The notes under the pieces: generated by a model
What the model was told of the DNA's origin: nothing
The model's database searches: none
Seen by the model: only the letters and a program-made list of their open reading frames with translations
Shown: piece by piece, positions 7,448 through 60,005 of the stretch
Layout: each line of letters starts with the position of its first letter
Numbering within the stretch: the stretch's first letter is position 1
Position numbers and translations under genes: made by a program
Assembly (NCBI GenBank): GCA_963849895.1
Contig: CAWKIU010000003.1
Location: 206,114 to 270,113, forward strand
Direction of reading: 5' to 3'
From: an uncultured Alphaproteobacteria bacterium
Lineage (GTDB): Bacteria > Pseudomonadota > Alphaproteobacteria > Micropepsales > Micropepsaceae
Length of the DNA stretch: 64,000 nt

Positions 7448-7836
7448 CTTACGGCCTTCAGAGCATCGAGACGGTGCATCACGCTGCCAGAAGGCAGCGG
7501 CGCGGTGTTCCGCGCGGAAATTGGCGTAACCGCGCGATCGAAGCGCTCGGCAATGCGTTCGCCCGAAGTGGTCAGCAGCGACAGTTCGTCGGCCAAGGCG
7601 CGGGCCCGTTTGAGACGGTCGTCCAAAGTGTCCGCAGCGCCAGAAGCGGCTGCCTTCAGGGCACGCAAGGAAGCGCCGGCCCCCGCAATCGCCGCATTAA
7701 GGTTTCCGATCATGGTTCGCAGGCCTTCTTGACCCTTGCGAACCGCCGCCAACCGTCTTTCCAAAACAATGCAGTAGACAAGCGTCGCCGCCAGAAGACC
7801 GGTCAGGGCCATTTCGAGTGCGAATGCGAGTGTCAT
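7444..7836 (-). CDS. small membrane-anchored coiled-coil protein (DUF6468-like), flagellar locus
   Basis: 130 aa with an N-terminal TM (LTGLLAATLVYCIVL) followed by an Ala-rich helix. Coupled to fliM upstream and motE-like downstream. Function inferred only from context. Confidence 0.55.
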   Translation of the reverse strand: MTLAFALEMALTGLLAATLVYCIVLERRLAAVRKGQEGLRTMIGNLNAAIAGAGASLRALKAAASGAADTLDDRLKRARALADELSLLTTSGERIAERFDRAVTPISARNTAPLPSGSVMHRLDALKAVR

Positions 7837-42211: not shown

Positions 42212-43546
42212 TTGGGCAACCTAACAACTCCGAAAAGCGTTCAGAAACTGCAGATGGCGTTACACGCGAAAGCGAAGGCTGAAGCCGGTTATCGCTTCTA
42301 CGCGCTGTACGACAAGATCAGCCGTGAGGACATCCTGGCATACGCCTATGCCCAGTGCCGTTCGAACAAGGGCGCACCGGGCGTGGACGGTCAGGACTTT
42401 GCGGACATCGAGACGTATGGGGTGGAACGGTGGCTTGGCGAACTGGCGCTTGCGCTCAAGGAAAAGACTTACCAACCAGACCCCATCAGAAGAGTGTACA
42501 TCCCAAAGGCCAACGGCAAACTGAGGCCGCTGGGTATCTCGACCGTGAAGGATCGGGTCTGCATGACGGCAGCGATGCTGGTGCTGGAACCGATCATCGA
42601 AGCTGACCTGCCATCGGAACAATACGCCTACCGCGCGGGGCGCAATGCCCAACAAGCGGTGGTCGAGGTGGAAGAGCAGCTGTTCCGTGATCACCCGGAA
42701 GTGGTTGACGCCGACCTCGCGGACTACTTCGGAAGCATCCCCCATAACGAACTCATGCAGTCGTTGGCGCGCCGGATCGTAGATCGGCACGTGCTGCATC
42801 TGATCAAGATGTGGCTGGAATGCCCCGTGGAAGAAACCGACGACAGAGGACGGAAGAAGCGCACGACCGAAGCACGGGACAAGAGACGAGGCATTCCGCA
42901 AGGCTCACCGATCTCACCTCTACTGGCGAATCTTTACATGCGCCGGTTTGTGCTGGGATGGAAGAAACTTGGATTGGAAATCAGCCTCGGCACGCGCATC
43001 GTGAACTATGCGGACGACCTGGTGATCCTGTGCAGAAAGGGCAACGCCGAAGAAGCGCTGCAGCGACTGCGCGAGATCATGGGAAAGCTGAAGTTGACGG
43101 TGAACGAGGAGAAGACACGAATCTGTAGGGTGCCGGAAGGAGAGTTCGACTTTCTGGGCTACACGTTCGGACGGATGTACTCGGCGAGAACCGGCCAGGC
43201 ACGCCTGGGCTACCGGCCCTCGAAGAAAAGCATCAAGCGCATGGTGGAGACCATCCATGCGCTGACAGAACGAACGACGACATGGCAAGAGACCACAGAG
43301 CTGGTAGGCAAGATGAACCGTTCGTTACGCGGCTGGGCGAACTACTTCGACGTAGGGACCGTCAGCAAAGCGTATCGGACCGTCGATAGCTATGCAGCGA
43401 TGCGGTTGCGCCGGTGGTTGCAGTTCAAACGAAAAGTCAGGGGAGGACGCAAGGGTGGGAGCTTTCCACTCTCTCACCTCTACGGGCACTTCGGTCTCGT
43501 ACGCCTGACCAATCGTGGACGCGACATGCCGTGGGCGAAGGCGTGA
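42212..43546 (+). CDS. group II intron reverse transcriptase/maturase
   Basis: 444 aa (TTG start; alternative ATG at 42254). RT motifs [44 protein letters not shown]. Maturase X domain ([10 protein letters not shown]). No HNH/En domain. Confidence 0.9.
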
Positions 43547-43558
43547 GGTTTTATCCGA

Positions 43559-43591
43559 GAGCCGGATGCGGGAGATCTGCCTGTCCGGTTC
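43559..43591 (+). ncRNA. group II intron domain V
   Basis: GAGCCGGATGCGGGAGATCTGCCTGTCCGGTTC. AGC triad, 9-bp lower helix, 2-nt 3' bulge (CT), 4-bp upper helix with a small loop. Confidence 0.65.
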
Positions 43592-44154
43592 GATGAGCGG
43601 GGTGTGGAAACGGAAGCCACGGCTGAACCAGTAAGGCACCGTCAGACGAAAGGGACGGAAACAGATATGTTCAGCCTACCGCAACCGCGCCACACCTCGA
43701 CTCTACGCGAAGCGGAAGTAGGTGACCAGCTGGGAAGGTCCAGATTCCGGGGAAGTGCTGTCGTTCTGAACGGCTCGCTTATTCGCCGTTTCGATGCTCG
43801 GTGGTACGACCGCTATCGGTCCATGTCTTGCCGTTACAGCCGAGTATCGATGGAATAAAAATGCGGCTCATCGCGTAGATGGGTCCACCTTCACTCCAAT
43901 GGGTGGTGGCCGAATCCGAATTCTAATTCAGGTCGCTGCAAATCGATGCTAGAACGACCATCCAAAAAGGTTGAAATGCATTGATATCGATTTTCCCTAA
44001 GCTAGTGCGTAAGGGCCGACGCGGACGGCGAAAGTCTGGCGGCAAGGTCCATGGCATTATGGATGCCGGTATCCGGCTGCTGGCGCAGAAGGACTATTGG
44101 GAAGGGTTGTGGAGATTGTCGTGAACGGCCACGACAGACGCACGGGCGGCTGGC

Positions 44155-44718
44155 GTGATCCGGGCAACATTCAAGCTCTCCACCGTAAAGCCCACCACTT
44201 TCAAACTGCATGAGGACTACCGGGAGGCCGTCACCCAATCCGCCCTTGCGGTTCTTTTTCCGCGTATAAAAAGCGCTTCGGCGGGAGCTATTCGGCTGGG
44301 CATGCAAATCATCCTCGCCACCATCACTGATGCCGTCTTACAGCCCCGCCCTGGTCCGATGGTGGCGGGAAGTAAGCGCATGAAGGACGCTCTGACCCAA
44401 GTGATGCTCGGCAACCTTGCCCGGATCGACGAACTGACCGCCCGGCGCGACGAATGCACCCGGCTTCTTGCAACACTGGAATCCAATGTGCCGGAGTTTC
44501 GGCAGGTGCTTTCCAAGCAACAAGCCGTCAGCATCTCCGACACCTTCAAGCGCAGGCTCCTAGACGCCCCGCCTGCTCTCAAAAAGCGCTACGTCCACGG
44601 GCTGGTCTCAAATATCGTCGTGGACCGCCACAAAGCCGTTATCTCCGGCCCGCCAGCGGCCATAGCCGCCGTCACGGCCCCGGACAGGCTGGGGGAAGTT
44701 CGTACTTTTGGTCGTGAA
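44155..44718 (+). pseudogene. remnant of a recombinase C-terminal region (large serine recombinase-like), runs into the tRNA
   Basis: Coiled-coil-like ...ARIDELTARRDECTRLLATLESN...LKKRYVHGLVSNIVVDRHKAVISGPPAAIAAV. No catalytic N-terminal domain upstream. The reading frame continues antisense through the tRNA (WWARQDSNLRP). Confidence 0.35.
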
Positions 44719-44795
44719 TGGTGGGCCCGGCAGGACTCGAACCTGCGACCTAACCGTTATGAGCGGTCAGCTCTAACCAACTGAGCTACAGGCCC
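44719..44795 (-). tRNA. tRNA-Met(CAT), elongator type (lysidine-modified tRNA-Ile2 cannot be excluded)
   Basis: Reverse complement GGGCCTGTAGCTCAGTTGGTTAGAGCTGACCGCTCATAACGGTTAGGTCGCAGGTTCGAGTCCTGCCGGGCCCACCA folds as a cloverleaf with a paired 1-72 position and CAT anticodon. Confidence 0.85.
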
Positions 44796-48283: not shown

Positions 48284-48345
48284 CGTCAAAGGATGGTGGC
48301 CCCGGACCGAGTCGAACGGTCACGTCCCTTTCGGAACTACGGATT
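48284..48345 (-). other. 3' fragment (anticodon stem to CCA) of tRNA-Leu(UAA): att-type island junction
   Basis: Reverse complement CCGGACTTAAAATCCGTAGTTCCGAAAGGGACGTGACCGTTCGACTCGGTCCGGGGCCACCA has the anticodon loop CTTAAAA, a long variable arm, T-arm and acceptor 3' strand. No D-arm or 5' acceptor follows; AT-rich foreign DNA starts instead. Confidence 0.65.
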
Positions 48346-48660
48346 TTAAGTCCGGTGCGTGAAAACATAAGTTATTTATTTAACTTATATTTTTGTCTGT
48401 ACCGTGGGCTAATGTGCTAGGCAATGTGCTAATCAGCACGGTATTTTGCGGCCCCAGCAACGCCCGAAAAACCCTTTATTACTGCGGTTTTCTGCGCTCT
48501 GGCGTTTCTCCAACCCCGTAAAAGGCCTGAAAACGCTGCCTTTGGGCGCTAAGAAGCCTACCGCCCGCGAGCAATTGAGGGTCTAGCACCGGCCCCTTGG
48601 GTCGTCGAGGGGAATTGCAGCGGGCCTATACCTACCCCTTTTTGGGCGGGTTCGGCCCTT

Positions 48661-48824: not shown

Positions 48825-49013
48825 GGCCCCGGGTGACCGGAAGGCACTTTTTCAACTTCGAGCACTATAGAGACATTGATCCCTTGAAATTTAGCTTGGC
48901 TCCGCCCCGCAGGCTGCGGCAGAAACATGTAATGTGGCAGCGCTCACTATCCGCGACCGCTGATAGATTGAACACGGGTGGGCACGATCGCGCAGATCAT
49001 CAGAGGGGATTAA

Positions 49014-50144
49014 ATGACAAAGCTAGTTTTGCCTGCCGCGCGGGTGCGCCAGGGTGGCCTCGTATTGTACTCAACCTCAATTAAGGTCAGAGACCTCGTC
49101 ACACCAAATTTCTATAGCGTGGAAACGCTTGATCCGAACAATAAGAACGACAAGGGATTTCAACGCCTATTGAATACCGCTCGCGCGAAGCGGCTCGCCG
49201 ACTACATCGTGAAAGGCCAAGACAGCAAGGACGCCTTTCTTCCCACTTCCGTATTTCTTGCGACGGCAAAAAACATCCCTTTCAACGAGACGAATAACAC
49301 CATCGAAATTGAGACGGGAAGCGTCTGCCCTTTCAGCGTTGTAGACGGCCAACATCGGCTTGAAGGGCTCAAGATGGCTGCCGAAAAAGATAGCAGGGTT
49401 CTGGATTTTGAAGCGCCGGTGAATATAGCCGTAAATCTACCCTTCATCGCGCAGATGTGTCACTTCCTGATAGTCAACACAACTCAAAAGAGCGTCGATA
49501 AATCGGTGGAACAGCGCATCATTGCGAGGCTCACCGAGGCTCTCGATCTGGAAGATTTGCCGAGCCTGCCGAAATGGATTTTGAACACCGTTGAAAAAGG
49601 TGAAGTGGATAAGGCGCTCAAGTATGTCACCTATCTCAACGAAGCGAATAACTCGCCCTGGAATGGCAAAATCCTAATGGCGAACGACGAGTCAGACGAC
49701 ACTACGATTAATCAGCGCTCCTTCGTTAAGGCGATTGTCAAATACGTCCTGACAGCCAACAATCCTCTCGCCGTGGTCGTGAACGATCTGGAAAGGGAGA
49801 AAAAAGTCTTTCTAAATTACTGGAAGGCCATCGCGAATTTGCTCGACGACGGAAACGCGACCGTCCTCTACAAATACAATGGCGTAGAACTCTTTTGCAA
49901 ATTCTCCATCCCGTTCTTCACGAAGTTGCAGGACAAGGGCAGCTTCACTGTCTCGACTATGGAGAGCTTACTCAAATCGTGCTTCGAAAATGTCGAAGGT
50001 GAATATGCCGGAGTTGGGCACCCCGACTGGTGGGCCAAGGGAAGCAACGCGAGCTTCTTGAATGCGGGTGCCATCAATGTGGTATCGCAAGAATTAGCCC
50101 GGGCCCTGCATAAAGTTTCTGCGTCGGCTGCAATAGAAGTATGA
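49014..50144 (+). CDS. DGQHR-domain protein (DndB-like, ParB/Srx-fold)
   Basis: 376 aa, RBS AGAGGGG. VVDGQHRLEGL (DGQHR at 49344-49358) and downstream FLIVNTTQKSVDKS, as in DndB-like/TIGR DGQHR proteins. About 48-50% GC by eye. Confidence 0.85.
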   Translation: MTKLVLPAARVRQGGLVLYSTSIKVRDLVTPNFYSVETLDPNNKNDKGFQRLLNTARAKRLADYIVKGQDSKDAFLPTSVFLATAKNIPFNETNNTIEIETGSVCPFSVVDGQHRLEGLKMAAEKDSRVLDFEAPVNIAVNLPFIAQMCHFLIVNTTQKSVDKSVEQRIIARLTEALDLEDLPSLPKWILNTVEKGEVDKALKYVTYLNEANNSPWNGKILMANDESDDTTINQRSFVKAIVKYVLTANNPLAVVVNDLEREKKVFLNYWKAIANLLDDGNATVLYKYNGVELFCKFSIPFFTKLQDKGSFTVSTMESLLKSCFENVEGEYAGVGHPDWWAKGSNASFLNAGAINVVSQELARALHKVSASAAIEV

Positions 50145-50479
50145 AGCTAAAGGCACTAGTTCCACTTCCGACGCAACGCGAGACGTTTAAGAGAAACCGC
50201 GAACGTTTTGTGCCATCAGCGCCGGGCTGCTACGTCCTGGCGACCTTTGATGGGGATGTTCTGTACATCGGGCTGTCTGTAAATCTGCGGAAGCGCATGA
50301 ACGATCACTTAGACAATCCTCAAAAGACTGGGACTAGCAAGAACGGGAGAGCAGTCTTTTTCTATTGGCTTAAATCATCGGACATCAACAAGATTGAGCG
50401 CACTTGGTTGAACATCCACATTGAGCACGAAGGCGTTTTGCCGATCCTGAACAGCATATTCTCCCCTACTGCGACATAA
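50141..50479 (+). CDS. standalone GIY-YIG nuclease-domain protein
   Basis: 112 aa, ATGA overlap with the DGQHR gene. GCYVLATF..DVLYIGLSVNLRKRMNDH (GIY, YIG, Arg) and IERTWLNIHIEHEGVLPILNS (Glu, Asn). Confidence 0.8.
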   Translation: MKLKALVPLPTQRETFKRNRERFVPSAPGCYVLATFDGDVLYIGLSVNLRKRMNDHLDNPQKTGTSKNGRAVFFYWLKSSDINKIERTWLNIHIEHEGVLPILNSIFSPTAT

Positions 50480-50740: not shown

Positions 50741-52600
50741 TTGGACATTGCCGTTAAGTCGCAAGTTTCGTTAGACGCGCGCGCCCTATTGTTGGCTGCC
50801 AACCAATTGCAGGGTGCGAGCGGGTACGCTGCTACTGCAAAAAACATTGTCGATCAGCTCCCTCCCCAAATCGCTCAGTATTTTTCGGCGCCGCTGCGAG
50901 AGTTGGCACGCGCCGACAATATTCTGCTCGCCGCTATCGCGCAGTCGTACTCACGAATGAAATTAGAAGATGCTCTGGCAGAATGTGTGCTTGAGGGTGA
51001 ACACGATCTAACCCTAAAAAATCGAGGGGCAGTTTTTACTCCTTCTTGGCTGGCACATCGCGTTCACCTCCAACGCCGCTGAATGGTGGACGAAGATAAA
51101 CGGCGACAAGCCGCCCAAGCTCATCGCCGACCTAAGTTGCGGCGCTGGAGCGTTTCTTGTCGCATCTACTGACACTTTTGGACGCGCATCGAAAATAGTT
51201 GGCTTTGATATCGACAAGCGTTCAATTGCCTACGCCCATTTAGCTAGTGCTGCTTGCGGCGCTCATTGGAATTTGGAACAAGCGGACGCGCTAAAGCGTT
51301 TTTCGGCACAACCAAATCTATTCAATGGTTCATCAAGCTCGAACGAAACATTTGATCTGATTATCGGCAACCCTCCCTATGTCCGCGCCGCCAATCTCGA
51401 CCCGGCGTATTCAGACTTCTACGAGCACACTATAAATCGACCGCGACGGGTAATTTCGATCTGTCAGTCGCGTTCCTCGAAAGCGCCATTGACCGGCTAA
51501 AAGAAGGGGGCGTCTGCTCATTCATAGTTTCTAGCAAATTCTGCCAATCCTCCTACGGGGCTAGCATTTGCAAGAAGCTTGCATCCGAGGCCCGCGTACT
51601 GAGCGTCGAGTATTTCTCCGATCATCAATTGTTTAAGGGCTACACAACCTATGTGATGGTGCTTACCGTAGCGAAGCTAAAGCCTGCGAAGAGATTTACG
51701 CTTACCACATTTCCATCGGGCCTAACCGCGGGAGCCGATCCGGGACGTGGAGAGAGTGTAACGCTCGACACGGAAAAGCTTCGAGATATTCCTTGGGACT
51801 TTGCTTCTGGCAGCAAACAAGACGTACTTTCGCTGCTGCAATCCAAGGAACATCCACTTCTTACCGACATATTCGGGGGAATTTTCCAAGGTGTCCGGAC
51901 TGGCGCAAATGACGTTTTCGTCTTGGACAAGAATGCGCACGCTTCTATCGAGGCCGATCTGTTGATCCCGTTTGTTACTGGTCGACAGATAGACCGGTTC
52001 GCGATTGATAACTCCGCGTTGAAGCTTATATACCCGTATTCGATAAGCGATTTTGGCGAAGTGCGCTTGCTCGAAGAGAAGTATTGCCGCCTGAAATATC
52101 CGGCGGCGTGAACTCATTTAAACAGCAGCAGACAGGCTTTACGGGAACGAAGCCGAGAAGGCTCTACCGGATAGTACGGATTCAGCCGATCTCAAAACCT
52201 TAGGGGGCATCGTCATTCGCAAGCTGCTTGTCAAGGAAATGATGGCGCAGGTCGAGTTTGCCGCTGACATTCATGGCCGAAATCTCATTTGGGTCAGGAT
52301 ATGCGCTTGATGCGTCGAGGATGTCCGATGACGACCTGCGCTTTGTGGACCAGCAGATGTTAAAATCCGACTATGGAATTTGCCCTCCGCCACGCCGGGA
52401 CGCAACTCCACAGCGGCTGGTTTAGGCTTCTTAAGCACCACCTGAAGCGCGTTCATCTTCCGAAATTGTCTAAGTCTGCGAAGGATGATGCTCTCGAGCT
52501 TGCGGAAAAGTTGCATCGTACAACTAACGTTTCCACTCAAAGGAAGCATTTGGATCGGATGGATGCGCTGGTTAGCGAAATCCTTTGGGCTCACACCTAA
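50741..52600 (+). pseudogene. Eco57I/TaqI-like gamma-class N6-adenine DNA methyltransferase, multiply frameshifted
   Basis: Pieces in three frames: GAVFTPSWLA (50741 frame); KLIADLSCGAGAFL...DLIIGNPPYV (frame open from 51018; NPPY at 51369-51380); GNFDLSVAFLESAIDRLKEGGVCSFIVSSKF...GVRTGANDVFVL...LIYPY (51629 frame); more C-terminal pieces to 52600. Shifts near 51060, 51430, 52108 and beyond. Confidence 0.7.
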
Positions 52601-52785
52601 GCAAAGGGCAGATGATTCCGATTTTAAGGCTAACTGCCACAAGCGCTCGGTGAAGGGTGATGCTTCCGTATTAAAGGAGAGTATTTCCGCCGACACCAAC
52701 TCCGACGCGGAACGATTTGAGCCTGTGAAGCTTGAGCGATTTAACAAGTATCATCGCGAGCGTGCAGACCTGCATCACCATGTAA

Positions 52786-54086
52786 CCTTTAAGGCCAACA
52801 AAAAAAACAGCAATCCATAGATGGTATCCATATACCCAAGGGTACTCGGCTACGCTTGTCGAAATTCTCTTAGCTGAATTGGGGGTATCACGTGGAGATA
52901 CCGTCCTAGACCCATTCTCTGGTAGTGGAACGACAAGTTTAGTTTGCTCACAACGCGGCATAAAGATCCCAATTCAATTCGACATTTCTCCCGCTTATGA
53001 CGTGGGTGGCGCACACAAAAGCTCAACGCCAGAACCTGCCGAGATTGAGAAGGTCATTGGCTCTTTCGACTATAAGAGGGCAACCAAGTTCAAGATCGCA
53101 ACGAAGAAGCCGGAATTGTTCGCGGACTATTTCTCTGAAGCTTATTCGGAAGGTATTCTTCAGCAGCTATTGTCGATCTTCGATTATATACGTGGTTTGC
53201 AAGCTAAAGAGAGCGTGCAGGATATTCTCATGCTTGGCGCAATCGGATTGCTTGAGGAAGTTAGCAATATCCGCAAACACGGTTCTCACTATAGATTTCT
53301 CAACAAGACGGAGAGTGTCGGCATGAGAAAAACTCAACATTCCAGATACACGATAAAGGACAATGTCGGGAGCATTTTGCAACAGCGTCACGCGCAAATG
53401 CTGGAAGACATCAAGGGTTCACCTTCGATATCTCCGAAGGTGCGCACTGATATTCGGACGGGGGACGCCCGCAACATGGCTATTCCGGACAAAAGTGTGA
53501 CAGCCATTATCACCAGCCCACCCTACCTAAATCGAAATAATTATATCGCCCAACAGAAAGCGGAGCTCAGCATACTCGGTCTGGTGAAGGACTATCCTGC
53601 GTATAAGGAGCTGGTCCGGTCCACGTTTCGCTCTCACGTTGAAAGCGCGCTGGACAAAGTAGCTGCAAGCGAATTACCAGAAGTGAGCCTGATTCTGTAA
53701 AAAACCGTTTTACACCGGGCAACAATCCAAAAATCCCCCATATGATCGCCGGATATTTTGCTGACTTAGCACAAACCTTGAAAGAACTCTTTCGGGTATC
53801 GAAGGCCGGCGCGCGTGTCGCGTTTGTGGTAGGCAATACGCATTAGGGGGTCGCGTGGTGATCCCAATCGATCATCTATTGCTAATGCTTGCCGAAAAGG
53901 CGGGATTTCGAGGCGGAGCGTGTTCTCGTTACGCGAATGAAGGGCAATAGCCCGCAGCAAATGCGCATGTACGGAAGAATTCCCGGTGCAAATCGGTCGT
54001 CCTTTTCCGTAAGCCGAATTAAGCACGCCTGCAGTCGAGTTCCTCTCGCAGATATGCAATCAGTGGACTGCCCGCTCGTTTTTTAA
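52786..54086 (+). pseudogene. second SAM-dependent DNA methyltransferase-like gene (motif I DPFSGSGTT, motif IV SPPY), disrupted
   Basis: IHRWYPYTQGYSATLVEILLAELGVSRGDTVLDPFSGSGTT has no in-frame start. It joins the upstream frame only if the A8 run at 52800-52807 changes length. SPPY at 53515-53526. The C-terminal part (..AGYFADLAQTLKELFRVSKAGARVAFVVGNT / VVIPIDHLLLMLAEKAGF / AERVLVTRMKGNSPQQM) is scattered over three frames. Confidence 0.6.
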
Positions 54087-55266
54087 TGAAAGGTCGGCTT
54101 TAAGAAGATCACTGGCGCAAAAGAATTTTTCGTAGCCTGCTAACTCGAGCATGTGCACGTATTTCAACGCCTCTCGCTGCGTGACACCCCAATTCCCGTC
54201 CAGCACGCTTATCCAATGGAATTTCTTGTCTCTCCAAACAAGCTGTCCTCGGTCTGAAAGTTCTGCGGTGTAGAGTAATCCGCGAGCGACCTGTTCCTTG
54301 GTTCGGTTTTGTATCTCTTGCCGTGCTGAGTTCTTCCACCGCCAGATGCTTTGCATTGGATATATACCGGCATTTTTAGGCGATTTGAGTAAAGCACAAA
54401 ATCTTCCGATAGCTTCGTGCGCTTCATGCCCAATTGATGGAGCAACGACAGGAATCTCAACGTCCTTTGCGAGCCCTCCTGGTATTCAAATTTGCCCTCT
54501 TTTAGCAGCAGGTCTACAATCGCTTCGACCGGATTAAAGTAACTCCGAGACATTTCGATTGCTTCCAGCGTAGAAAGAAAGTGGTTCCACTCCGTCGCGC
54601 CTGCATCAAGCGATGCCTGCATACAGTGACGGGCGATCTCATTCTCAATTGCATCGGGTGTCTTCGCGCCTGCAGAAGCGATGAGCGCATCAAGAATTGC
54701 ATAGCGGACCAAGCCAGTCGGTGGTTTGGTTTCGGGCGCGCTAAGTATGCGCTTCTTCCACCCTGCCCGAAGATCAGTCCAAAACTGCGCGTGCTTGAGC
54801 GGTGTCTTTGTTGGTTCGATGCCAATATTCAAAAGGCGTTCGGCGTCATCGTTATTCCACAGAAATAGGATGTCGTCGTAGAAGAATGTGAACGCCTCAA
54901 TGACATAGGGGAGCCAAGCTTCGCGCGTTCCCCCAAGCACCAACGTTGAGCGTAGATCGGGATATGCGTTCTTCAGCAGAGCAATTCGCCAAGCTTTAGT
55001 TGAAGCTTGTTTTCATTGCTGTGGCCCGGTGTATCGGGGTTGGAGTACGTGACAGAGACAATTGCTTGCGGCTTATCCAAAGAGGGATACACACAGTCAG
55101 TCTGTATTCTATATTTGTGCTGGAAATCATAAACGACGCGCCCGCCATCCCAATCCAGAGATTCCCGGACCGTGCGCTCAAGATTGCTCCCATACTTTTG
55201 GACTTCGACCAAGCTGGCGGCTTGATTGGCCCAAGCCTTATCGCTCATATTTTCTCCGGATCGCAC
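54060..55266 (-). pseudogene. restriction-endonuclease-like gene in three frame fragments (function tentative)
   Basis: 55266-54973, 54943-54209 and 54356-54060 read as one protein across two shifts (...NENKLQLKLGELL / LKNAYPDLRSTLVLGGTREAW...; ...VYIQCKASGGGRTQHGK / NRTKEQVARGLLYTAEL...). Convergent with the methyltransferases. Confidence 0.45.
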
Positions 55267-55863: not shown

Positions 55864-57216
55864 CTATCGTTCCCTTTCCCTCCCTCGGTCGCGGTCGCGA
55901 TCTTCTTCCATGCGACGTATGAGATCGCGCAAATAGTCGTCGCCCTTGGACTGGATATTATTGAGATGCTCCCGCGTGAGATTTTGCAAATCTTCGGGCT
56001 TAAGAGTTTTGCCGCCCTCGATGCTGTCGCGAATTCGCTCAAGCGCATCCAGTGCCTTCCGTTGGGCGATGATTTGCTCGATGCGTTCTGCTTGCGGATC
56101 GCGTTTGGGCGGCGGCGCGCTTCCCGCCAAAAAGTCAGCCACGAAGTCCGCGAGCTTTTTCGACGCCGCCCGTAATGCTATTGGCGACGCCTAGTCCGGC
56201 CTCCAAACCTGCTTCAGCCGAATTCACGGGCGAGGGATCGTTTCCGAAGCCCGGCTTGCTCTCTTGCCTAGGTTCGAACGTTTCGGCCTTTGCCTGGTTA
56301 TAATCTTTAGCCGGTTCGCCAGCGGCCCGGTCACGCCGCATCTGTTCGCGTTCGAGCTGGCTTTGCCTGCGGACTTCACTTTGATCGTAAATGCTTTGCG
56401 GCGTATCCTGTTCTCGCGGCGGTGTCGCGCGCTGTTGCTCGCGGGCTTCCTCAACGGAAGGAAGTGCTTCGCGATCTACGTCCGACATGCGCGTGCGCAC
56501 TTCGGCGGTCTTCACGCCGTCAAGTCGGCGCGCCAAACTGTGCGCGTCTCCCGCGCGATCTACCACACAAAAGTCTCGGCGGTCGCCTTTGGCGAGGACG
56601 TATCCCCGCTCTTCAATGGCCGCTTTGAAAGCCGTGCCGAAGTCCGTTGATCGCCAGAACTGGGTTAGCTCCTCTTTCATCGCTTTCGGATCAATGCCGC
56701 TTCTTTCGGCGGCGCGCTTCTCCATAGTTGCTCTGACTGGTTGCGTTCATTGGGAGCTGCAGTTGGCGTGGGTGTGAGCCCGAACCGGGCTTCGAGTTCG
56801 CGCGAGGTGCGTTCGTGGATCAAGTAGTTGCCGCCCATGTCCGCCACTTTCATGGTCTCGACATCGACCCGGTTCCAGACCACATGATAATGTTGACGGC
56901 CTTCCTTGACGTGCTCGATCACGACACGTTGATGACCTTCAAGCCCGAGGTTACGCTCAAGCGTATCGACAGCCTCCTTCCACTGCTCGGGTGTAAGATG
57001 CTCATGGGCGAGAGGATTGATATTGGCTTGATACATGAAATTGCCGTGGGAGCGGCTGCCGCTGGCGACGCCCTGCATTTCGCGCAAGGCACTTGGCAGA
57101 TCGGTGGCCGCCAGTCCTGAAATCTCTTTGACTTCGGCCTTCTCGTTCGTGTCGTCGCGCAAGAGGTGTTTCGACCAGAACCCGACGCTGCCTGCCGGGT
57201 TCCCTTTGATAATCAT
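55864..57216 (-). pseudogene. MobA/VirD2-type (MOBQ-like) relaxase, two frameshifts
   Basis: N-terminal MIIKGNPAG...SHGNFMYQANINP...GRQHYHVVWNRVD (His triad). Continues in another frame (RSGIDPKAMKEEL...GYVLAKGDRRDFCVVD) and again after an A5 run near 56160 (LADFVADFLAGSAPPP...DRDRDRGRERER). Confidence 0.75.
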
Positions 57217-57587
57217 GGCCGTCGGCCAAGGACCAGCATGACGGCATGGGCTGCCAGCCGAACCTCGGCAATGGCTGCTCTCACGTCTTCGAGCACGTCC
57301 TTCCCAATATTGGCGGCGCGGGCGACCTGATTGAGGTTGCTGCCTGCCTTCCCAAGCTGGCCGAGCACCTTTGCCAGGAGCTCCTTTTCCACGGGGGGGC
57401 GCCGGACGCTCCGGGGCGGCAATGCGCTGAGCATTTGCGCCCGACCGTAGGATGACAAAGTGAGCCCCGCCCGGCTGGCGGCCTCCTCGGCCTGAGCGAG
57501 CTCGGCTGGGGTGAGGCGGATCATCGCCAGCTTCGTCCTCTGGCGCTTTTCACTGCCGCTTCCCCTGGGCGGCTTGTCGCTCGTCAC
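57213..57587 (-). CDS. mobC: MobC-family relaxosome accessory protein
   Basis: 124 aa. IRLTPAELAQAEEAASRAGLTLSSYGRAQML...LLAKVLGQLGKAGSNLNQVARAAN. ATGA overlap with the relaxase. Confidence 0.85.
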   Translation of the reverse strand: MTSDKPPRGSGSEKRQRTKLAMIRLTPAELAQAEEAASRAGLTLSSYGRAQMLSALPPRSVRRPPVEKELLAKVLGQLGKAGSNLNQVARAANIGKDVLEDVRAAIAEVRLAAHAVMLVLGRRP

Positions 57588-57861
57588 GGCGGGCCTCCTT
57601 GGCGAAACCCATCGCCGAAAGGGCTGAAACCCAACACATTTTCCTGCGGGGTCAACGGGGCGGAGCCCCTTGCAAGACAGGCGGAGAACCAGCGCGTCCG
57701 GGACGCGCGGTATATCCGCCGCTGGCTTGCCACTATCATTATTCTAACTTTTCTTGACTTAAGACGGCTTAAGTTTGGATCAAATCCAAGATAATTCAAT
57801 TCAAATAAAACGGCCCACCCCCTCTGGAGCCGCCCGAAAAACGTGCTCATACTGAACACGG
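57588..57861. promoter_or_regulatory. candidate oriT / divergent promoter region between mobC and the coupling-protein gene
   Basis: AT-rich patch (57730-57820) with small inverted repeats TTGGAT-caa-ATCCAA and GGGGC-gga-GCCCC. Position upstream of mobC-relaxase is typical for oriT. No nic site recognised. Confidence 0.3.
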
Positions 57862-60005
57862 GTGTGTGCAGGCGGTGTCAAAATGTTGGCACTCGAGTTC
57901 GGGTCGGGCGTTGGGCTGCTGGTCCTGGCGGCGGCCATCCTGTCGCCCCACTGGTTGCCACCCCTCCGGGACGAAGTGCGCAGGGTAGCCGACGATACAA
58001 GGCGGAGCTGGGACGCATTTTGGGCGTCGGTGCCGGGCAGGTGGGCAAAAGCGAAGGCCCGTTGGTACGCGACAAAAGGCAAGCGGCGAACCGCGGCCAT
58101 ACTCGCGTTCCTCTGTGTTCTGGGCGGGGGGTGGCTGCTTTGGGTGAGCCGCTCCGCAGTGGCCATAGACGATACGTCACTCAGCTTTCGGCTGCTCTTT
58201 TTTGGCATAGGCTTGGGCACGATTCTGACCGGAATAGGTACTGCCTTTTACGCCGCCCAGATTATTTCTCTGGTATTGAATGGGTTTCCAGGGCCACGAC
58301 GCCCACTGCCACCGTCCCTGCCCCTTGCCAATCCCATGAACCGCGTCGGCACGGCTTCCCCCCTTGGCGAGGCAAGATTTGCGACGGCGGAGGAAGTGGA
58401 TTCCGCATTGGCCGGGCGCGGCGGGCATTTTGTGCCACCGAAATTCAGGGACTAGGCAATGAGCGATATGGTCGGCCAGGAGCTTCGTTTTGTGTTTCCG
58501 GTCTTGGGCAGCCAAGAGCCGGATGCCATCCGCCTTGGACGTTTCGCGGACAGTGAGCGTCACGCGATCACGAGCCGCATGGGTTATGGCGGCGAGCGTA
58601 ATGTCATCATCTTCGGCCCCAACGGCTCCGGCAAAGGTGTGCGCCTTTTGGTGCCGAACCTTTTGCAAAGCCAAGGCCGCTCGATGTTCGTCGTCGATCC
58701 GAAGGGCGAACTCGCTGCTATCACCGCGCCCTACCGGCGTGAAGTCAGCGATGTCGTAATTATAAACCCGTTCGGCGTTTTTGCCGACCGGCGCGGCTAC
58801 GAGGATTTGAAAAGCACTGGCTACAATCCGCTCGCCAAATTGAATCCTTTGTCGCCCTCCTTCAACCGGCAAGCCGCGCAGCTTGCCGAAGCGTCGTGAC
58901 GGTGAGCGACAGAGACCCGCATTGGGACACTTCGGCGCGCGCACTGCTCGCGGCCATCATCATGTATGTCGTCATGGAAGCGCGGCAACTCCTCACGCCG
59001 GAAATTCAGGCAATGGCGGGAACAGGGGCGCACACGCTCTTTCAAAACAAAACAGTCCCGACTATGGCACGCGTACGGGAGCTTCTGTGTATGGCTTCCG
59101 AGAAACCAAGTGCCGCCAATGATTTCCGGGGCGTCGGTATCCCGGCGCTCGCTCTCGCCATGATGCAAACCAATATTGCGGGGCTTCGCAATAAGGCTTC
59201 GCAGTTCACAAATTGGACCAACGAAATTCAGTCGATTGCCTCGGCGGCCAAGCGCCACACCGAAGCGCTCGACGACGATGAAATCGCGGCGGACTTGTCT
59301 AAGAACGGCTTCCGCATGAGTGAGATGAAGAAAAGGCCCGTTACGGTCTATCTCGTACTTCCTCCGGACCTGATGGAGCGTCACTCGAAGTGGCTGCGCC
59401 TGGTGATTACGGCGGCGCTGCAATCGGTCATGCGACCCCGCGAACCGGGCGAGCCGAAAATGCTCTTCGTGCTCGACGAGTTCGCCGCTCTCGGGCACAT
59501 GGAAATAATCGAGACGGTCTGGGCGCTGGTGCGGGGCTACGGCATTCAGATTCTGCCGGTATTCCAAGACCTCAACCAGCTTCAGGGTATCTATAAGGAG
59601 CGCTCGCAAACCTTCATCGCCCAGGCGGGGGTTGTGACCTCTTTTGCACCCAACGATCTTACCACGGCGAAGTGGATTTCCGACCGCGCCGCGGACACAG
59701 AGCGGATTATCACAAGCGATAGCTTCAGTATCAGTTCCGGAACAAGCAGCGGTTCATCATTCGGGGGGCCATCAGGCCGCACGAGTTCCTCGGGGTCAAA
59801 TTCGGGTTGGTCGAGCTCGACATCGAACCAACCGACGAAAGTGCCCTTCATTCAACCGCACAGTCTGTTCGGGATGCACGAGGGAGCAACGCTAAGCTTT
59901 ATCGCCGGGCTTTCGGACATCGTGCCGGGTTATGCGCCGCCCTATTGGGACATAGATCAGTGCGTAGTCCGTGCGCGTGAAAATCCGTATTATCAGGCAG
60001 CGTGA
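57862..60005 (+). pseudogene. TraG/VirD4-family type IV coupling protein, interrupted by an in-frame TAG (58453-58455) and a frameshift near 58896
   Basis: TM N-terminus. GEARFATAEEV, then stop, then ...NVIIFGPNGSGKGVRLLVPNLLQSQGRSMFVVDPKGE (Walker A), frame change, DPHWDTSARALL...VLDEFAALGH (Walker B). Confidence 0.8.

Follow-up and report, generated by a model that had tools for sequence, protein, structure and literature searches.

A conserved, horizontally spread gene pair for a DGQHR-domain protein and a minimal GIY-YIG nuclease: a candidate two-component module of genetic conflict

Do two small, overlapping genes on a low-GC island, one coding for a DGQHR-domain protein and the other for a stand-alone GIY-YIG nuclease, form a functional unit of their own, and if so, what does it do? 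The question arises from a 64,000 nt stretch of DNA (the window) of an uncultured Alphaproteobacteria bacterium of the Micropepsaceae (assembly GCA_963849895.1, contig CAWKIU010000003.1, positions 206,114–270,113, forward strand), in which an earlier reading, made from the letters alone (the sequence-only reading), had picked out the pair as a candidate defence module. Comparison with homologous loci indicates that the two genes belong together, and we judge, with a probability of roughly 0.55, that the pair is an autonomous, mobile two-component nuclease module in genetic conflict, most likely directed against phages, plasmids and other mobile elements. The locus consists of the following parts.

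49003–49009, plus strand: Shine-Dalgarno-like GAGGGGA, 4 nt before the ATG of the DGQHR gene, read from the sequence
49014–50144, plus strand: gene 1, DGQHR-domain protein (ParB/DndB-like fold), 376 aa, from the open reading frame (ORF), TIGR03187 and Pfam DndB
50141–50144, plus strand: ATGA start/stop overlap, predicted translational coupling, read from the sequence
50141–50479, plus strand: gene 2, predicted minimal stand-alone GIY-YIG nuclease, 112 aa, from the ORF and PF01541

Both ORFs are intact and overlap as had been described, and an in-frame TAA at 49011–49013 rules out an N-terminal extension of the DGQHR gene in the window copy.

When 5.8 billion proteins were searched, 1,860 relatives of gene 1 came up, the top 120 of which are all 75–85% identical, along with 294 of gene 2, almost every one exactly 112 aa in length. 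The source names among the gene 1 relatives include Planctomycetota, Acidimicrobiales, Bradyrhizobium, Nitrosospira and Sphingobium. A pattern scan of one genome per GTDB species found the locus in 28 of 185,579 representatives, a count that is an underestimate, and two other loci, one of them duplicating locus L005, brought the genome set to 30. The GIY-YIG gene lies immediately 3' of the DGQHR gene in all 30, and in nearly all of them its first base is also the third base of the last DGQHR codon. A further 85 loci were taken from metagenomes and IMG/VR; 77 of these have at least 250 nt downstream, and in each of the 77 a GIY-YIG ORF follows the DGQHR gene. Examination of homologue neighbourhoods had been proposed as the check on the pairing, which proved to be conserved in 107 of 107 loci, most with a 4-nt overlap (ATGA, GTGA or TTGA), and the same partners occur at the three megaplasmid loci checked (L127, L128 and L130). 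No third gene is conserved, as no ORF family within 8 kb on either side is present in more than 4 of 29 loci, so the module is exactly two genes; a conserved upstream small ORF or non-coding element was likewise not found at the compared loci. The absence of dnd, ssp and dpd genes, asserted for the window, also extends further: none recurs in the flanks of the 29 loci, and none is present among the scanned island ORFs.

The two proteins co-evolve. Over 79 non-identical pairs the mean amino-acid distance is 0.39 for the DGQHR protein and 0.54 for the GIY-YIG protein, and the two distance matrices correlate with a Mantel r of 0.85, a value reached in none of 999 permutations. For pairs with unsaturated synonymous divergence (dS), the median ratio of nonsynonymous to synonymous substitution rates (dN/dS) is 0.09 for the DGQHR gene (0.01–0.07 in the closest pairs) and 0.19 for the GIY-YIG gene. 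Both are therefore under purifying selection, and the suggestion of ongoing selection, drawn earlier from the intact frames, is borne out. Three genome loci are disrupted: in L030 about 1.1 kb is inserted into the DGQHR gene, next to a full-length GIY-YIG ORF, and in L012 and L022 the GIY-YIG gene is frameshifted.

Gene 1 scores above the cut-offs of TIGR03187 (DGQHR domain; 100.8 bits, cut-off 58.85) and Pfam DndB (PF14072; 56.5 bits, cut-off 29.1), and these profiles place it in the DGQHR domain family (TIGR03187/PF14072 superfamily). The two signatures attributed to it, VVDGQHRLEGL and FLIVNTTQKSV, are both present. It falls below the cut-offs of the DndB equivalog TIGR03233 (20.2 bits, cut-off 328), the DpdB equivalog NF041060 (43 bits, cut-off 300; aligned along residues 2–276), the DGQHR_dnd_1 model (60 bits, cut-off 450) and Pfam GmrSD_N (PF03235, DUF262; 13.3 bits, cut-off 33.2). 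An assignment to DndB or DpdB was rejected because the scores lie far under the equivalog cut-offs and dnd/dpd linkage is missing. Q50-R51, D111-G-Q-H-R115 and F151xxxN155 lie in the N-terminal, ParB-like domain, and all of these named residues (Q50, R51, D111–R115, F151 and N155) are invariant in 79 of 79 unique pairs. The C-terminal domain (about residues 200–376) is helical with no detectable nuclease motif, and a Pfam search for a DUF1524/HNH nuclease in gene 1 gave no match. The one well-conserved histidine of this domain, H336, was considered as a catalytic residue and rejected, since it varies across homologues, so that no second nuclease site is seen.

The AlphaFold2 (AF2) model of gene 1 is of moderate quality, with a predicted local distance difference test score (pLDDT) of 78 and a predicted template modelling score (pTM) of 0.51. 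Foldseek of this model against BFVD returned 17 matches (E 3e-9 to 1e-3) to DUF262, DndB-family ('DNA-sulfur modification-associated'), GmrSD_N and ParB proteins, which confirms the predicted ParB/DUF262-class fold of the N-terminal domain. Sequence and profile searches for relatives of solved structure returned none, the only matches being spurious ones to NAA60 (E about 0.1). A separate observation concerns DGQHR residues 157–195 (window 49482–49598), which are among the most conserved segments of the family; Q158, D162, Q167, R172, E180, P183, P186 and W188 are invariant in an alignment of 35 DGQHR sequences. The pLDDT of this segment is below 50 despite its high conservation, and it may become ordered only upon binding of a partner, DNA or a second subunit.

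Gene 2 passes the Pfam GIY-YIG profile (PF01541; 30.6 bits, cut-off 22.6), and its AF2 model is confident (pLDDT 92.8). Foldseek matched the model with 2lwf (E 6e-5; probability 1.0) and with the N-terminal GIY-YIG domain of UvrC, 1yd6 (E 7e-5), which is nearest to gene 2 both among solved structures and by sequence (phmmer E 5e-4); other matches were plant GrxS16 (its GIY-YIG domain), Eco29kI and T4 EndoII. The predicted catalytic set is Y31, Y42, R52, H56, E86 and N104, and among the 79 unique pairs Y42, H56, E86 and N104 are invariant, with one exception each at Y31 and R52. The five residues named in the sequence-only reading (Tyr in CYV, Tyr in LYIG, Arg52, Glu86 and Asn104) are thus present and near-invariant in homologues, and the Y-Y, Y-R and R-H spacings match those of I-TevI. 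By profile score, fold and catalytic residues, gene 2 belongs to the GIY-YIG superfamily. Its first 27 residues, outside the catalytic core, are also conserved. The possibility that it is a UvrC/Slx1-type housekeeping fragment had been raised as an objection and was checked for UvrC/Cho: the scores are 21–27 bits against cut-offs of 285–1038, only the GIY-YIG core aligns, and the protein belongs to a stand-alone family of about 112 aa. A classical free-standing homing endonuclease was also considered and rejected, as gene 2 is a 112-aa core only and the loci have no common insertion target.

While the core of the DGQHR protein is conserved, about 12–15% of homologues carry in-frame N-terminal extensions of 70–210 aa. 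By sequence they form at least 23 unrelated clusters, far above the expectation for chance ORFs. One is an Mrr_N winged-helix domain (Pfam, 88 bits), which is the DNA-binding module of the Mrr Type IV enzymes, and others match DUF7662 (48 bits) or, weakly, DUF5655. Long DGQHR forms are annotated by RefSeq on Sinorhizobium plasmids, and homologues with fused N-terminal domains include the following.

L079:1583–3085
L127:7584–9125
P0106
P0326

Swappable N-terminal domains on a conserved core would fit a DNA-targeting conflict system. Two interpretations of the longer proteins were tried and rejected. Several extensions had been taken for HARE-HTH domains, for which Pfam gave no support, and homologues of 469–568 aa had been taken for DGQHR–GIY-YIG fusions; their extra residues are all N-terminal and they share the common ...IE[IV] C-terminus. 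A metagenome scan for a distant, 'tier 2' DGQHR clade mostly re-found the clade of the pair itself. The exception is a distantly related DGQHR protein (27% identity) from a Bacillus thuringiensis plasmid (L129:5353–6978), which follows a multi-pass membrane protein and lacks a GIY-YIG partner; Dcm, DUF3883 and integrase genes are nearby. This pairing hints that DGQHR is a common chassis with exchangeable effectors.

The hosts found in the GTDB scan belong to at least five phyla: Acidobacteriota, Planctomycetota, Verrucomicrobiota, Myxococcota and, within the Pseudomonadota, Alpha-, Beta- and Gammaproteobacteria, with 54–83% identity across them. The genus Leptospira has a GC content of about 35%. 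The record of locus L020 is titled Leptospira interrogans, its flanks have a GC of 0.57–0.62, and the contig is probably a contaminant; Spirochaetota were excluded from the host count on account of this mismatch. In 28 of 29 genome loci the module has a lower GC than its flanks, with a difference of up to 22 points, and in many loci the dip is restricted to the module and less than 500 bp upstream. Taken together, these comparisons of sequence indicate that the pair spreads horizontally.

The carriers are diverse. In a metagenome-assembled genome (MAG) of Candidatus Competibacteraceae (L008, 1–4500) the pair makes up an integron-type cassette, about 1.8 kb long, in an array, flanked by attC-like repeats with GCCTAAC...GTTAGGC cores, and in L013 it lies between an integrase gene and a duplicated 3' end of that gene. 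The direct repeats of L008 and L013 were considered as the ends of an element and rejected, being the attC-like sites and the duplicated integrase 3' end, respectively. In two prophage-like IMG/VR sequences (L042:1942–12842 and L043) the pair occupies a moron-like position on the opposite strand of the tail operon, in L042 between the tape-measure gene and the genes for distal tail (assembly/fibre) proteins. On Sinorhizobium megaplasmids it is found beside WYL, PD-(D/E)XK, UvrD, DEAD-helicase and exonuclease genes, and in Bradyrhizobium (L002) it has a Type I restriction-modification (R-M) system and an integrase as neighbours. The pair stands alone in the widespread P0039 lineage (L032:5466–8454; also L033–L041), between zapA and the 6S RNA gene ssrS (in L032, Rfam 6S, 62 bits, 7658–7810), upstream of the gene for 5-formyltetrahydrofolate cyclo-ligase. 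Integron cassettes, prophage morons, R-M-adjacent sites, plasmids and conjugative remnants are typical carriers of accessory or defence cargo. No flank sequence is shared between loci, terminal inverted repeats and target-site duplications were not found at them, and integration next to a tRNA was not seen as a general rule across loci.

In the window, the lower-GC island that had been described is real: GC drops from 0.57–0.63 to 0.49–0.52 across 49–55 kb. The pair is accompanied by these features.

48290–48352, minus strand: 3' 63 nt of a tRNA-Leu(UAA) at the left edge of the island, from ARAGORN with an artificial 5' third grafted on
50741–53700, plus strand: decayed Type IIG/R-M-looking genes, short ORFs in shifting frames
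within 56677–60005, minus strand: island genes for a MobA/VirD2 relaxase and a NikA/MobC protein
57862–58455 and 58896–60005, within 56677–60005: TraG/VirD4 coupling protein, split into two ORFs

The island around the pair is the remnant of a decayed conjugative or mobilisable element. One short ORF of the 50741–53700 region contains a fragment of an Eco57I-type N6-adenine methyltransferase (motif IIGNPPY), and the 273-aa ORF that follows bears N6_N4 methyltransferase motifs, again as a fragment. The methyltransferase neighbours named in the sequence-only reading are thus real but fragmentary, while the restriction-like ones are unverified, the ORF at 54209–54943 having no match in a Pfam scan. 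Since such genes are not conserved beside the pair elsewhere, those of the window are incidental and lie outside the module. With TraG split and the methyltransferases fragmentary, it is fair to count the pair among the few undisrupted genes of the island. The tRNA-Leu gene that had been placed at the island edge was rejected: neither ARAGORN nor Rfam detected one, even at E ≤ 1, and ARAGORN called a tRNA-Leu(taa) at 48290–48352 only after a synthetic 5' third had been added. Folding of the fragment was uninformative (z = 0.49). This 63-nt sequence is an att-like remnant, as left at one end of an integrated element, and not a functional gene. Further to the left is an apparently intact group II intron (42212–43685, plus strand), with a reverse-transcriptase/maturase ORF of 444 aa (42212–43546) followed by an Rfam Intron_gpII domain V/VI match (43557–43685, 41 bits). 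A tRNA-Met(CAT) gene is present at 44719–44795 on the minus strand, and a 209-aa plus-strand ORF (44155–44784), by eye like the C-terminal remnant of a recombinase, runs through it. This region (44155–44795), with the intron just upstream, may mark a second, older integration site.

How might such a pair work? DpdB, the relative nearest to gene 1 among those characterised, is a dimeric, DNA-stimulated ATPase with a ParB-like N-terminal domain that has been modelled as encircling dsDNA, and its helical C-terminal domain resembles the nuclease domain of SspE without the nicking motif (PMC10164549). A DndB-like protein binds ATP and GTP (bioRxiv 10.1101/2025.10.10.680097), and GmrSD, BrxU and SspE carry this fold in fusion with an HNH nuclease; GmrS and GmrD also exist as two separate proteins (PMC4619093). 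On the strength of these precedents, we propose the DGQHR protein as a nucleoside triphosphate (NTP)-dependent DNA-binding partner: like DpdB, DndB and SspE, its closest characterised relatives, it would be an NTPase of the ParB fold, probably dimeric, whose binding or clamping of DNA depends on nucleotide. The GIY-YIG protein, which lacks a DNA-binding domain of its own, would be made in fixed proportion through translational coupling, and would be recruited or licensed by the DGQHR protein to cut the DNA that its partner has selected. The module could then be seen, much as the sequence-only reading had suggested, as a split version of the GmrSD/BrxU/SspE design, in which a GIY-YIG nuclease acting in trans replaces the fused HNH domain. 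Since the pair moves without a methyltransferase or any other modification gene, it would have to tell self from non-self either in a Type IV-like way (by modified or otherwise unusual DNA) or in response to infection. We infer from this scheme that the two proteins form a complex, that the target DNA is cleaved and that a defence phenotype would result. A GIY-YIG domain serves as the defence effector in SNIPE/PD-lambda-1 (bioRxiv 10.1101/2025.11.03.685801).

Several results weigh against a role in conflict. The DGQHR protein is unusually conserved for a participant in an arms race, with 75–85% identity across phyla, and Foldseek of its model against the PDB gave weak matches (ParB N-domain, SspE and PadC at E 0.2–0.6). 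None of 50,697 isolated phage genomes contains the pair, and on plasmids it is rare. The neighbours in the P0039 lineage are zapA/ssrS, glycolysis genes and ftsH, and the 283 flank ORFs examined are mainly housekeeping genes (ThiC, GidA, MreB, GatB, RNase E, EPSP synthase). Only a few of 147 flank ORFs match PADLOC models, as a raw count. Enrichment in defence islands thus appears only modest, and so is the argument from guilt by association; some loci (L002, Sinorhizobium and the window) are plainly settings of defence or mobile genes, but most flanks are housekeeping and few of their ORFs match PADLOC, a weaker signal than the window by itself would suggest.

The pair might instead be an addiction module of the toxin-antitoxin (TA) kind, selfish and without benefit to the host, in which a GIY-YIG toxin is neutralised by the coupled DGQHR protein and loss of the module is lethal. 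An upstream regulator followed by a small downstream nuclease with a 4-nt overlap is the typical order of a TA operon, the pair is found inserted by itself amid housekeeping genes and also in an integron cassette, and TA genes are abundant in integron arrays. The disruptions at L030 (DGQHR) and at L012 and L022 (GIY-YIG) can also be read in this way, but L030 cuts in the other direction as well, since a full-length GIY-YIG gene beside an interrupted DGQHR gene would be hard to tolerate if the nuclease were an unchecked toxin. A 376-aa protein with an invariant NTP-binding-type motif, a dN/dS of 0.01–0.09 and sometimes an Mrr_N domain also seems too elaborate for a simple antitoxin. We regard addiction as unlikely, and since TA and abortive-infection defence overlap, it is only partly distinct from a module that acts in conflict.

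Rather less likely is an accessory DNA-repair or DNA-processing pair with no part in conflict, in which an incision nuclease like UvrC/Cho is loaded by a ParB-like clamp. The N-terminal domains of UvrC/Cho are the closest relatives of the GIY-YIG protein in both sequence and structure, and very high conservation of the DGQHR protein and housekeeping neighbours at many loci would suit such a role. Its distribution would not: the pair is patchy and horizontally acquired, being found in 28 of 185,579 species representatives (an underestimate), it has a GC below that of the host in 28 of 29 genome loci and is carried by mobile elements, and it is linked to no repair genes.

A self-propagating micro-element, in which breaks made by a ParB-targeted nuclease promote copying of the 1.6–2 kb cassette in a homing-like manner, is very unlikely. 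It would account for the solitary, low-GC insertions of about 1.6–2 kb that lack a recombinase and occupy unrelated housekeeping loci in many phyla, and for the opposite-strand position inside a phage tail operon. Tail operons are classic sites of free-standing homing genes, and GIY-YIG is a known homing-endonuclease fold. However, terminal inverted repeats and target-site duplications are absent, and with no sequence in common between their flanks the loci lack a shared target site. Both genes have been under strong purifying selection over deep divergence, unlike the usual gain and decay cycle of homing genes; attC sites, integrase islands, prophage and plasmids explain some of the movement, and the pair is missing from the isolated phage genomes. 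A combined version, in which the ParB-fold NTP switch licenses the bare GIY-YIG nuclease and the same machinery helps the 1.6–2 kb cassette to settle at new sites without a recombinase, is a similarly long shot; such recombinase-free establishment would explain the solitary insertions between housekeeping genes in many phyla. Finally, an orphaned DndB- or DpdB-type regulator or helper that acts with modification genes elsewhere in the genome is highly improbable, for although the DpdB, DndB and DGQHR_dnd_1 models give the best named matches, they reach 20–60 bits against equivalog cut-offs of 300–450, none of the flanks shows a recurring dnd, dpd or ssp gene, and the invariable partner is a nuclease rather than a modification enzyme in a pair that travels alone between phyla.

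PADLOC-DB 2.0.0 has no model for the pair; in this database gene 1 matches DpdB (1.2e-10) and DndB (2.6e-5), and gene 2 has no significant match, PDC-S14 (E 0.0016, the best) and UzuA being the nearest. A description of the DGQHR/GIY-YIG pairing was not found in the full-text literature, with subscription-only papers outside the search, and the closest published remark is that URI/GIY-YIG nucleases occur inside Dnd neighbourhoods (PMC10853773). The earlier statement that no named system has this composition thus agrees with both searches, and the pair is not DndB, DpdB, GmrSD/SspE, UvrC/Cho or a classical homing endonuclease. The pair also indicates that 'DGQHR/DndB-like' annotations outside dnd/dpd clusters hide at least one distinct functional family. 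The extreme conservation of the DGQHR protein, its variable N-terminal add-ons and the carriage of the module in an integron cassette and as a prophage moron make it tractable and link it to the question of how defence cassettes travel.

DpdB and DndB share with gene 1 the DGQHR family (TIGR03187), a length of about 350–380 aa, an N-terminal ParB-like NTPase domain (predicted in gene 1) and a helical C-terminal domain without a nuclease motif. They differ in their partners: neither dpdA/dpdC nor dndACDE lies near the pair in any locus, and its constant companion is a nuclease. UvrC and Cho, the nearest relatives of gene 2, have other domains that gene 2 lacks, and the latter is horizontally mobile and not a housekeeping gene. 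In SNIPE/PD-lambda-1, Eco29kI and Hpy188I, a GIY-YIG catalytic domain cuts invading DNA, as is proposed here, and Eco29kI is among the fold matches of gene 2; those enzymes, however, have targeting domains of their own (transmembrane plus DUF4041, or specificity elements), whereas the nuclease of the pair is a bare core with a conserved 27-residue N-terminal segment and is always accompanied by its ParB-like partner. The closest overall design would be that of GmrSD, BrxU and SspE, which likewise need no cognate methyltransferase and are mobile and island-borne, and DUF262/GmrSD_N proteins are among the BFVD fold matches of gene 1. The motif there is DGQQR and not the DGQHR of the pair, GmrSD_N scores below its cut-off, and their nuclease is a fused DUF1524/HNH domain in place of a separate 112-aa GIY-YIG protein. 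Judged from these sequence relationships, the pair, for which no named system accounts, appears to extend the ParB-fold NTPase-plus-nuclease class; if so, it would be a compact (about 1.5 kb) two-gene addition with a different nuclease fold, supplied in trans, and a clean system in which to study how a ParB-type nucleotide switch gates a nuclease.

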